From positions 1 to 4,117 of IMG/VR virus record IMGVR_UViG_2541047121_000023: 4,117 nucleotides of DNA; one strand, 5' to 3'. The position numbers were made by a program. This DNA comes from a virus. Lineage: Duplodnaviria; Heunggongvirae; Uroviricota; Caudoviricetes. Every line of letters begins with the position of its first letter. Position 1 is the stretch's first letter. Below are positions 1 to 4,117 of the stretch, in pieces.

Positions 1-3000
1 CCTTTAGCTCAGTGGTGAGAGCGAGCGACTCATAATCGCCAGGTCGCTGGTTCAAATCCAGCAAGGGCCACCATCACAAACCGCCATTAGCTTATCAGGA
101 AGAGCAGACGACACCATAACAGGGTTGTTGGTGCGGGGCCGGGTCCCCGATGGCGGTCCATTATCTGTATCCTGCGTTGTTAGCTCAGCCGGACAGAGCA
201 ATTGCCTTCTAAGCAATCGGTCACTGGTTCGAATCCAGTACAACGCGCCACACTTATTTTCCCTGGCTCGCTTTTGCGGGCCTTTTTTTAAATGTCTCAC
301 AATTCAGGCGGTTGACTGTTGTCTGGTTTGCGGGGAGTTTGTTAAAAGAAACTGGCATGGTGAATCCCCCTGTGCGGAGGGGCAATCAGCGAGTAGGTAT
401 ATGGGATAATCGCGGATTCAGGTGCTGGTACTGAATTCACCGGGAGGCACCCGGCACCATGCAATGGCACATAGCGCCACTCTCCAGCCCCTCTCCGGAG
501 GGGCTTTCTTATGGACAAAAAAAGCCCGCGCAGGGAGACGCGGGCGGCAAGGAATAAACAACAAAACGTGAAGTAATATTTCAGCTGGCGAATAATATCC
601 GACAGTAATCACTCTGCGCAATAGCGCGGCCTTTTTCGTATTGCGGGCTGTTGTCTCTCTTCTGCCATTGTCCTGTAACTTCCGGACTTCAGCCCGCTCC
701 TCATTTTACTCACAATATTATCCCGGCCGGGAGGATTCATGACATTTAAACATTATGATGTTGTCAGGGCGGCGTCGCCGTCAGACCTTGCGGAAAAGCT
801 GACACACAAACTGAAAGAGGGCTGGCAGCCGTTTGGTAGTCCTGTGGCCATAACCCCTTATACCCTGATGCAGGCGATTGCCGCGGAGGGGGATGTGACC
901 ACGCCAGTGGTTGTGCCCGGCACGGGGGATGGTGGCTATCCGGGAGTGGTCACCACGGAGCCAGATTATTACTACGTTATTCCACTGGCCGGGCAGTCGA
1001 ACGGCATGGCTTACGGTGAGGGGCTTCCTCTGCCGCAGACATATGACCGTCCTGACCCGCGTATAAAGCAACTGGCTCGTCGCAGCACAGTGACGCCGGA
1101 TGGCGCTCCCTGTAAATATAACGACATTATTCCGGCAGACCACTGTCTGCATGATGTACAGGACATGAGCCGTCTTAACCATCCGAAAGCTGACCTGTCG
1201 AAAGGTCAGTACGGAACCGTGGGGCAGGGGCTGCATATTGCCAAAAAGCTGCTGCCGTTTATACCGGCGAATGCGGGTATTCTTCTGGTTCCGTGCTGCC
1301 GTGGTGGTTCAGCTTTCACCACCGGGGCAGATGGAACATACAGTGACGTGACCGGTGCCTCAGAGAGTTCTACCCGCTGGGGTGTGGGCAGGCCGCTGTA
1401 TAAGGATCTCATCGGTCGTACAAAAGCCGCGCTGGCAAAGAACCCGAAAAATGTGCTGCTTGCCGTGGTGTGGATGCAGGGGGAATTTGACTTTGACGGA
1501 ACGCCAGCAAATCACACAGCCCGTTTTACAGAAGTAGTGGAACAATATCGTACGGACCTTGCAGATATGGTGGGACAGTGCGCTGGTGGTTCTGCTGACG
1601 GTGTTCCCTGGATATGTGGAGACACAACTTATTTCTGGAAGCAGAAGAGCGAATCCACTTACCAGACGGTGTACGGCAGTTACAAAAACAAAACGGAAAA
1701 GAATATTCACTTTGTGCCGTTCATGACCGATGAGAACGGAGCAAATGTCCCGACGAACAAACCGGAAGAAGACCCGGATATTCCGGCATCAGGATATTAC
1801 GGTGCGGCCTCCCGGACGTCGGCAAACTGGACGTCAGCAGACCGTGCGAGCCATTTCAGCTCATGGGCACGCAGGGGGATTATTTCTGACCGTCTTGCCT
1901 CAGCGATTCTTCTCCATGCAGGACGGACGGCTGAACTGATGGGTGGGGAACAGGTTGTGATGCCGCCGGATGAGAAGCCGTCACCGGACACACCATCAAC
2001 ACCGTCAACGGACGGGAAATCAGTGACAACGCTGCTTTATTACCGTGCAACAGAGTCAGGTGGTTTACTGAATCCGCAGGGATGGGGAGCTGAAGGAGGG
2101 CGTGCATTGGTAGTTGATGATGCAGGTGCTGCAGGAGGTAAGGCGCTGAGGTGGACCAAACAGACAGGAAGTTCCTCGTGGTTTATGCAGCATGATGCCG
2201 GTAATGGCGCAGACCTGCTGGAGAAGGGCGGGCTTATCAGTTGTCGTTTTAAAGTTGATGGCACACTGACAGCTAATCAGTACGCACTGGCGCTGTACTG
2301 GCCGGTTTCTTCACTGCCTCAGGGCGTCACACTGGAAGGTAATGCCGGTCATAACCTGCTGGCGTCGTTTTACGTACAGAGCGATGCCACAGACCTTAAT
2401 GTGATGTACCACAAGGGAAATGCTGGTCAGAACACGAAGCTGGGGTCATTCGGCGCATTTGATAACGAATGGCATACGCTGGGCTTCCGTTTTGCCGGTA
2501 ACAACAGTATTGAGGTGACGCCGGTCATTGATGGTAAGGACGGGACGCCGTTCATGCTGTCACAGTCACCGGTCGGCACGTTTACGGCAGACAAATTGCG
2601 CGTGACCGATATCACTAGCGGTGCGACATATCCGGTGCTGATTGAAAGTATAACAGTGGAAGTGAATAACCCGTAAGCAGGAAAAAAAGGCCGCCGGGGC
2701 AGGGAAAACAAGGAGCCAGAACCGGCGGCAAATGTCGTTATATCCAAAGCAAAACATGCAGGACACTTTTTTAACCAACAGGTATTAACGATGTCAACAC
2801 CATATCAATAACCGGGAGGGATAATGAGATTTGTACAGCTTATTTTATTGTATTTCTGCACGGTGGTGTGCACGTTATATCTGGTAAGTGGCGGGTATAA
2901 GGTTATCCGGAACTATATACGCAAAAAGATTGATGCCGCGGCGGCGGAAAAAATCAGCGCCAGCCAGTCAGCCGGAACAAAACCCGAAGAGCCTCTCATT

Positions 3001-4117
3001 TCGTAGCAACTTTCTTAACAACACCTTTCAACGAGAAAATCCCATGTCAGAAATAAAATCTCTGGTCACTGCTGAAGCAGTGAAGGACGTCCTGCGCTCT
3101 GAAGAAGTCAGAAGCGCACTGAAACAGCAACTCCGCCAGAATCTTGAGGCGCGTCTTGATGCTGAAGTGGATGCCATTCTGGATGAGCTGCTGGGGGGAC
3201 CGGCTGCTCCTGAGCCTGAAGACGGCGCGGGTGACAGTGCTGTTTCAGATGGCGTTGTGTCTCAGCCTGACGGTAGCAGTGAGCCTCAGCCTGGCGGCGA
3301 AATGATGATGTAACCATACGCAGGGGCTGTCGGTGTGAGCTGATGCCCCTCCTGTTGTTGTGAGCTTCCGGATTGCGGGAGACGGGGTATGTACCAGATG
3401 GAAAAAATCACAACGGGTGTGTCATACACCACGTCAGCGGTGGGGACGGGATACTGGCTACTGCAGTTGCTGGACAAAGTCTCCCCATCCCAGTGGGTGG
3501 CAATAGGCGTATTGGGTAGCTTGCTGTTTGGCCTGCTGACGTATCTGACAAATCTTTATTTCAAGATTAAAGAAGATAAGCGTAAGGCTGCGAGAGGTGA
3601 ATAATGTCGCCGTCATTACGCAAGGCTGTTGCAGCTGCTATTGGTGGTGGGGCTGTTGCCATAGCGTCTGTGCTCATCACTGGTCCAGGTGGTAACGATG
3701 GTCTGGAAGGTGTCAGCTACATACCATACAAAGATATCGTTGGCGTATGGACTGTATGTCACGGACACACCGGAAAAGACATCATGCCCGGTAAAACGTA
3801 TACCGAAGCAGAATGCAAAGCCCTCCTGAATAAAGACCTTGCCACGGTCGCCAGACAAATTAACCCGTACATCAACGTCGATATACCGGAAACAACGCGC
3901 GGCGCTCTTTACTCGTTCGTTTACAACGTGGGCGCTGGCAATTTCAGAACATCGACGCTTCTTCGCAAAATAAACCAGGGTGATATCAAAGGCGCATGTG
4001 ATCAGCTACGGCGCTGGACATACGCTGGCGGTAAGCAATGGAAAGGGCTGATGACTCGCCGCGAGATTGAGCGTGAAGTCTGTTTGTGGGGGCAACAATG
4101 AGCAGGGTAACCGTTAT

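Follow-up and report, generated by a model that had tools for sequence, protein, structure and literature searches.

Antiholins and other timing regulators of phage lysis, such as S21-71, lambda S107, T4 RI and RIII, P1 LydB and P2 LysA, are small proteins encoded in or beside the lysis cassette. In T4, a membrane/periplasmic protein (RI) and a small cytoplasmic one (RIII) jointly regulate the holin, providing a precedent for a membrane protein that acts with a soluble partner. The late regions of lambdoid phages also carry morons (stx, lambda bor, nmpC/lc), dispensable and mosaic genes placed either between Q or the tRNAs and S, or after Rz. In phage Mu, the releasin gp25 (DUF2730, PF10805) frees an endolysin of the SAR (signal-anchor-release) type, and this dependence rests on basic residues 6 and 7 (PMC9239132). 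We compared with these systems a pair of small open reading frames (ORFs) in a 4,117-bp stretch of the Caudoviricetes record IMGVR_UViG_2541047121_000023, hereafter the window, which represents the late region of a lambdoid, Shiga toxin (Stx)-phage-like prophage without stx. ORF1 (2824-3006, 60 aa) and ORF2 (3044-3313, 89 aa) lie on the + strand upstream of the holin gene, exactly where an earlier note made from the sequence had placed them, and belong to the families DUF1378 and DUF826, respectively. We put the probability at roughly 40% that the pair constitutes an optional, membrane-tethered lysis modulator in which DUF826 serves as the acidic cytoplasmic partner.

Both ORFs are real genes under purifying selection and ordinary members of named families, because they match Pfam and PHROG profiles over their full length and have low pooled ratios of non-synonymous to synonymous substitution rates (dN/dS), namely 0.19 for ORF1 (27 distinct alleles; 0.08 for the adjacent holin) and 0.17 for the helical residues 1-51 of ORF2 (38 distinct alleles). 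ORF1 matches DUF1378 (PF07125) with an E value of 5.8e-40 and 135.7 bits (cut-off 25), residues 1-59 aligning with model positions 1-59 of 59, and phrog_494 with an E value of 1.7e-35. ORF2 matches DUF826 (PF05696) with an E value of 1.2e-34 and 118.7 bits (cut-off 25), residues 1-73 aligning with model positions 1-73 of 75, and phrog_311 with an E value of 4.2e-38. Every ORF recovered starts with ATG (83 for DUF1378 and 81 for DUF826, the window included), and homologues diverge down to ~30-40% identity with the architecture kept. The profile matches, the dN/dS values and the conserved ATG bear out the coding status that the earlier note had proposed. Its statement that neither ORF could be assigned to a characterised family stands insofar as neither DUF1378 nor DUF826 has a described function; it needs correction insofar as both are named families already annotated in RefSeq, including for the 100% identical copies in E. 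coli O157:H7. The ORFs are already known, being widely annotated members of two uncharacterised families, and their sequence is ordinary.

The sole paper that we found mentioning the two families gives both as of unknown function (PMC10462455); the 'DUF1378' of another article (PMC7213743) is a typographical error for DUF1738. Searching the literature by locus tag (ECs1208-1210, Z1467/8, L0106/7, VT2-Sap45, 933Wp43 and vb_24B_23/24) returned no functional or expression study and no direct translation evidence. A profile search of the PDB gave only hits with E values of at least 0.49, Foldseek returned no match against the PDB and none better than E = 3 against BFVD, PADLOC matched neither ORF and NCBIfam gave nothing meaningful. 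No Pfam or PHROG holin or antiholin family was matched by ORF1 or ORF2. Neither resembles a spanin: ORF1 has ~3 predicted periplasmic residues and no lipobox, and ORF2 has no signal sequence or transmembrane (TM) segment.

ORF1 is predicted to be a bitopic inner-membrane protein with an N-out/C-in orientation and ~3 periplasmic residues. Its best 19-residue hydropathy window covers residues 3-21 (mean Kyte-Doolittle value 2.28), and in the AlphaFold model residues 2-49 form a single unbroken helix, in agreement with the single-pass membrane protein suggested earlier. The predicted parts are a TM helix at ~3-24, a basic juxtamembrane helix at 25-49 and a disordered end; residues 25-40 contain five K/R and one D/E, and the whole protein has an isoelectric point (pI) of 9.3 and a net charge of +4. 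Within ORF1 (window 2824-3003), the 3′ half (codons 26-60) shows less synonymous divergence (dS 0.41) than the TM half (dS 0.66), which may reflect either constraint from the translation-initiation region of ORF2 or recombination history.

ORF2 (net charge -12, pI 4.06) consists of a conserved helical part, residues 1-51 (nt 3044-3196), followed by an acidic, variable tail (residues 52-89) that is rich in Pro, Gly, Ser and Ala and ends in MMM. AlphaFold predicts helices at residues 10-17 and 20-49, with a block-mean predicted local distance difference test score (pLDDT) of 93-98 over residues 21-50, and gives pLDDT <50 for residues 57-80 and 82-85, indicating predicted disorder. The model thus agrees with the helical N-terminal half and acidic disordered tail described from the sequence. 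Eight of the 38 tail residues are acidic and none is basic. In the alignment the first 51 residues are nearly invariant, and the tail differs in length with indels, remains acidic and Pro-rich, and has a pooled dN/dS of 0.49. Nearly every full-length homologue examined ends in MMM, MML, TML or TMM (window 3302-3310), and this hydrophobic end could be a linear motif or a degron.

Older records (933W p43, VT2-Sap45, phrog_8301) annotate ORF2 as a 141-aa protein that starts at a GTG and overlaps ORF1 (upstream extension 2888-3043, + strand). This version was rejected, for in 16 of the 63 distinct relatives a break in the extension frame comes within 5-35 codons, and the length of this frame is not significant against synonymous resampling (p ~0.06); the added segment is probably an over-called start lying outside the protein. 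A frameshift fusion of ORF1 and ORF2 was likewise rejected, as the two candidate proteins, P0084 and P0220, have the look of isolated frameshift events, and so was the idea that DUF826 is a homologue, now detached, of the extended C-terminal tails seen in distant DUF1378 proteins (hhalign probability 1.3%). A 103-aa protein (P0020; 2 member sequences, 4 contigs) is a chimera in which the N-terminal part of the S21 holin runs in frame into the C-terminal two-thirds of DUF826, with both Pfam domains recognised, and is probably a rearrangement between neighbouring genes.

The best pointer to function comes from distant DUF1378 genes, which are integrated into lysis cassettes. They sit directly 3′ of Rz/Rz1 as the last cassette gene in 57 loci, which comprise a lineage of phages like vB_SmeS_BUCT709, 31 loci with long-form proteins and one further locus (L145), and in 48 of these the DUF1378 ATG overlaps the Rz stop codon by 4 nt (ATGA). 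What the distant proteins retain is the N-terminal TM helix, the motif L(I/V)(A/S)GG(W/Y)xxIR and, on the cytoplasmic side, a helical tail that is in many cases extended and has a high content of Ala, Lys and Glu; all ten that were scanned pass both Pfam DUF1378 and phrog_494. The gene upstream matches the Rz-like spanin family phrog_214 in all 30 scanned of 47 distinct ones, and the next gene upstream of Rz encodes an endolysin in 25 of the 26 scanned (21 phage lysozymes, three GH19 and one GH108), the phage lysozymes inspected having SAR-like N-termini. The holin belongs to the S21 family (PF04971) in 19 of 24 distant cassettes. The long form of DUF1378 was likewise found in Phytobacter, Kosakonia, Brenneria, Pantoea and Mangrovibacter prophages. 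Neither nanS-p nor DUF826 was found in the 57 loci.

Observed beside these cassettes, the record of 'Stenotrophomonas' phage vB_SmeS_BUCT709 (OM816835.1, our locus L090) contains at 3721-3936 an S21-family pinholin of 71 aa (PF04971, E 4.4e-21) that is unannotated in the deposited record, so that its cassette reads pinholin, SAR-like lysozyme, Rz with embedded Rz1, and DUF1378. An 'Elizabethkingia' phage record carries a long-form DUF1378 that is 94% identical. This copy and the enterobacterial look of the BUCT709 cassette make the stated hosts worth checking. In two further loci (L164 3712-3936 and L183 3739-3963), a conserved 74-aa ORF (MTVRAKFRC...) without a Pfam match lies between Rz and the DUF1378-like gene.

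In Stx-like prophages the arrangement is different and fixed. All 80 IMG/VR loci with ORF1 fit the order nanS-p, DUF1378, DUF826 and S21-type holin with almost fixed spacing, and where a neighbour was not seen among them the contig ended or carried an insertion at that point. The endolysin 3′ of the holin is swapped between types in the Stx-like loci, and divergent nanS-p-linked members keep the trio, after which comes another class II holin, PF16080. Two gene orders are therefore observed, tying DUF1378 to cassettes of class II holin and lysozyme and DUF826 only to DUF1378 and nanS-p. An accessory lysis role, which gains support for ORF1 from distant members lying in holin-endolysin-Rz cassettes with overlapping start and stop codons, is the best supported for that ORF among the alternatives that the earlier note had offered.

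How far the resemblance to Mu gp25 goes can be judged from architecture and context. Like gp25, DUF1378 is small, with a single N-terminal TM helix predicted to be oriented N-out/C-in, 3-4 predicted periplasmic residues and a cytoplasmic remainder modelled as helical. It occurs mostly with SAR-type endolysins having basic residues near positions 6-7 and also with soluble endolysins, as does DUF2730; in the window the endolysin N-terminus MSPSLRK places R6 and K7 at these positions. Unlike gp25, DUF1378 has a basic (net +4) rather than an anionic cytoplasmic segment, the negative charge (-12) being carried by DUF826, a separate polypeptide. Phages of the window type possess a holin, whereas Mu has none. 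The distant DUF1378 genes follow Rz directly, whereas the window pair lies upstream of the holin. The pair resembles the antiholins and timing regulators in its small size and its place in or beside the lysis cassette, although the S21 holin of the window already has its own dual-start antiholin.

These features could be joined in the following scheme. The pair would be co-transcribed with nanS-p and S-R-Rz on the Q-dependent late transcript, and DUF1378 would insert with its N-terminus out and its C-terminus in, its highly conserved TM helix (LLYFCTxVCxLYLxSGGY) packing on another membrane helix. The acidic helix of DUF826 may then dock on the basic juxtamembrane helix of DUF1378, and the docked proteins would present a membrane-tethered anionic module in the cytoplasm. 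Such a module might tune the time at which the SAR endolysin, with its cytoplasmic N-terminus MSPSLRK, is released, or the time at which the pinholin is triggered. As co-inherited accessories of the late operon, the two proteins would have their site of action on the cytoplasmic side of the inner membrane, and the module would parallel the Mu gp25 releasin, or an antiholin, in architecture without being homologous to it. A mechanism specifically like that of the releasin is less probable than the general lysis-modulator reading. The fuller proposal, that DUF1378 represents an unrecognised class of Enterobacterales phage lysis-cassette proteins, membrane-tethered and tuning lysis by pinholin and SAR endolysin, and that with DUF826 as the anionic domain in Stx-like phages it forms a two-part, convergent split analogue of the Mu releasin, is doubtful.

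Several observations weigh against a role in lysis. Remote homology of DUF1378 to Mu gp25/DUF2730 was rejected, with hhalign probabilities of 0.14-0.19% (0.14% when a DUF1378 profile of 22 sequences was compared with a gp25 profile of 17), neither ORF matched PF10805 at an E value of 1 or less, and the antiholins show no sequence relationship to the pair. The positions upstream of S and downstream of Rz are the classic lambdoid insertion sites of morons such as lambda bor and stx. The distant and the other loci are phylogenetically related, so that their counts are not independent events. The DLP12 prophage of K-12 has S21 and an R nearly identical to the window R without the pair, and in phage JLK-2012 nanS-p is followed directly by S; since S21 cassettes exist without it, the pair is not needed for lysis. 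DUF826 was never seen without nanS-p, and the trio in Mu-like prophages, described below, adjoins no lysis genes. The lysis-accessory reading draws on sequence, synteny and predicted structure, and the putative DUF1378-DUF826 interaction within it is suggested solely by charge complementarity and near-perfect co-occurrence.

The alternative that survives best is that the pair is moron cargo apart from lysis. A small protein of the inner membrane, aided by its partner in the cytoplasm, would then travel with nanS-p and act, for example, in superinfection exclusion or in altering the envelope or physiology of the lysogen or of the infected cell. Factors for superinfection exclusion are typically small inner-membrane proteins. 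In Mu-like prophages (loci L121, L123, L130, L133 and L137, at ~2100-6000, and L086), the trio nanS-p, DUF1378 and DUF826 lies in a non-lysis setting, flanked by tail-fibre genes on one side and com/mom on the other; its DUF826 is divergent (PF05696, E 1.9e-15), and Pfam confirmed Zn_ribbon_Com and Mom. Its presence in both lambdoid and Mu-like prophages therefore indicates that the trio moves as one module between unrelated phage types. The pair is also dispensable, both for lysis cassettes and for nanS-p, and shares with the lambdoid late-region morons their slots and mosaic occurrence; E. coli carriers hold a median of three copies. On the other hand, a consensus scan showed for the pair, in contrast to such morons, neither a promoter-like site of its own nor a terminator flanking it or dividing it from S; over the whole window the scan detected no sigma-70-like promoter on the + strand. 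It lies on the same strand as the late genes and is tightly spaced, ORF1 beginning 147 nt past the nanS-p stop (2676), with 37 nt between ORF1 and ORF2 and 75 nt from ORF2 to the holin ATG (3389). The 4-nt overlap with the Rz stop in most distant loci points to operon integration, and PADLOC offers no match. A moron role of this kind, superinfection exclusion included, is unlikely in our judgement, and an accessory lysis role is favoured over an autonomous moron because the distant DUF1378 genes are built into lysis cassettes with overlapping start and stop codons.

The constant company of nanS-p raises the further alternative that the pair assists NanS-p, in the assembly, processing or localisation of a capsid-decorating esterase, and that the link to lysis is incidental. 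nanS-p lies directly 5′ in every DUF826 locus seen, lambdoid or Mu-like, and likewise, within the E. coli clade, in all short-form DUF1378 loci with enough upstream sequence. The NanS-p homologue of phi24B, gp84, decorates the capsid as a hexamer of N-terminal DUF1737 domains on the hexons at face centres and is processed after release (bioRxiv 10.64898/2026.04.10.717836, a 2026 preprint). This capsid decoration (phi24B nanS-p, L089 1209-3146) alters the usual view of the upstream gene as a moron for lysogen fitness. Set against such an accessory role are the 57 loci in which DUF1378 occurs without nanS-p and the occurrence of nanS-p without the pair, both in JLK-2012 and in the phage collection, where nanS-p is present in 351 records versus 307-309 for the pair members. 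In the part of the phi24B six-frame virion proteome that was examined, no ORF appears at the coordinates of the pair, a weak negative given that ORF2 yields few usable tryptic peptides. Moreover, capsid decoration in the cytoplasm has no obvious need of an inner-membrane protein. We regard an accessory role for NanS-p as quite improbable.

The acidic tail had also led the earlier note to suggest that ORF2 might act as a DNA mimic or in anti-defence or regulation; ORF1 would on this reading be unrelated. The charge and pI of ORF2 and the composition of its tail are compatible with this suggestion, but the tail is the least constrained part of the protein, with the dN/dS of 0.49 and indels noted above, and the conserved part is a helix. 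DNA mimics such as Ocr and ArdA display their acidic residues on a folded scaffold; the ORF2 tail is predicted to be disordered (pLDDT <50) and varies in length, in place of a conserved acidic array. ORF2 is also strictly coupled to the membrane protein ORF1, and the PADLOC, PDB and Foldseek searches gave no match, so that mimicry is very unlikely. That one or both ORFs are non-functional and kept by linkage is hardly credible despite the lack of direct translation evidence in the literature, given the purifying selection, the conserved ATG, the 83 intact DUF1378 and 81 intact DUF826 copies and an architecture maintained even among highly divergent homologues.

The remaining features of the window place the pair in its operon. 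The 5′ end carries a truncated tRNA (1-70) and tRNA-Arg(tct) (174-250), followed on the + strand by a full-length match to the small RNA STnc100 (Rfam RF02076; 326-516; 138 bits versus a gathering score of 47). This match sits in the terminator-rich gap from tRNA-Arg to nanS-p, the slot held by stx in Stx phages, and terminator-like hairpins lie around or over it at 265-282, 486-505 and 614-629 on the + strand and at 545-524 on the - strand. No stx gene lies between the tRNAs and nanS-p (window 251-738). In most other O157 prophages, similarity to the window begins only at ~337-351. The gene nanS-p itself (739-2676, + strand) encodes the Pfam domains DUF1737, SASA esterase and DUF6645. As read from the sequence, a good Shine-Dalgarno-like motif, GGGAGGG (2814-2820, + strand), ends 3 nt 5′ of the ORF1 ATG, and the one before ORF2 is weak.

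Downstream of the pair, all on the + strand, lie the S21-family class II holin (pinholin; 3389-3604; PF04971, E 1.4e-32) with a dual-start motif (M1, M4), the R21/DLP12-type lysozyme with a SAR-like N-terminus (3604-4101; PF00959; tblastn against DLP12 rrrD, E 1.6e-106) and, read from the sequence, the start of Rz (4098-4117), which overlaps the R stop by ATGA and is cut by the window end. A mosaic breakpoint occurs at the S/R junction (window ~3604-3607): the closest O157:H7 relatives match only up to there and continue with a YdfR-family gene and a different lysozyme, whereas the window R is of the DLP12/R21 type. The RNA structure upstream of S (3300-3400) is unremarkable, with a z-score of -1.2. 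A binding site for the small RNA 24B_1 has been predicted upstream of S/vb_24B_23 (PMC4426718); we dropped this candidate, as the 20-nt phi24B sequence shows no ungapped complementarity (with up to 6 mismatches) in the window or in the phi24B locus from nanS-p to terminase.

The pair is common in E. coli. Of 5426 complete genomes of this species, 1063 contain the 490-bp pair; identity to it reaches at least 99% in 309 records, and among the O157:H7 genomes listed several have copies with 100% identity. DUF1378 occurs in 309 records of the phage collection and DUF826 in 307, nearly all of them from Stx or other Escherichia/Shigella lambdoid phages. An exhaustive profile search recovered DUF1378 in only 39 representative clusters among 1.84 billion proteins, and the DUF826 profile found no relative in species-representative genomes. 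About one-fifth of complete E. coli genomes and nearly all Stx phages carry the pair. It lies in the late operon that sets when the Stx-phage lysogen bursts and hence when Shiga toxin is set free. If the lysis-modulator reading is true, DUF1378, alone or with DUF826, would be a further component of the best-studied lysis pathway, would offer a handle on when toxin and phage are released, and would account for the gene that ends many Enterobacterales lysis cassettes.

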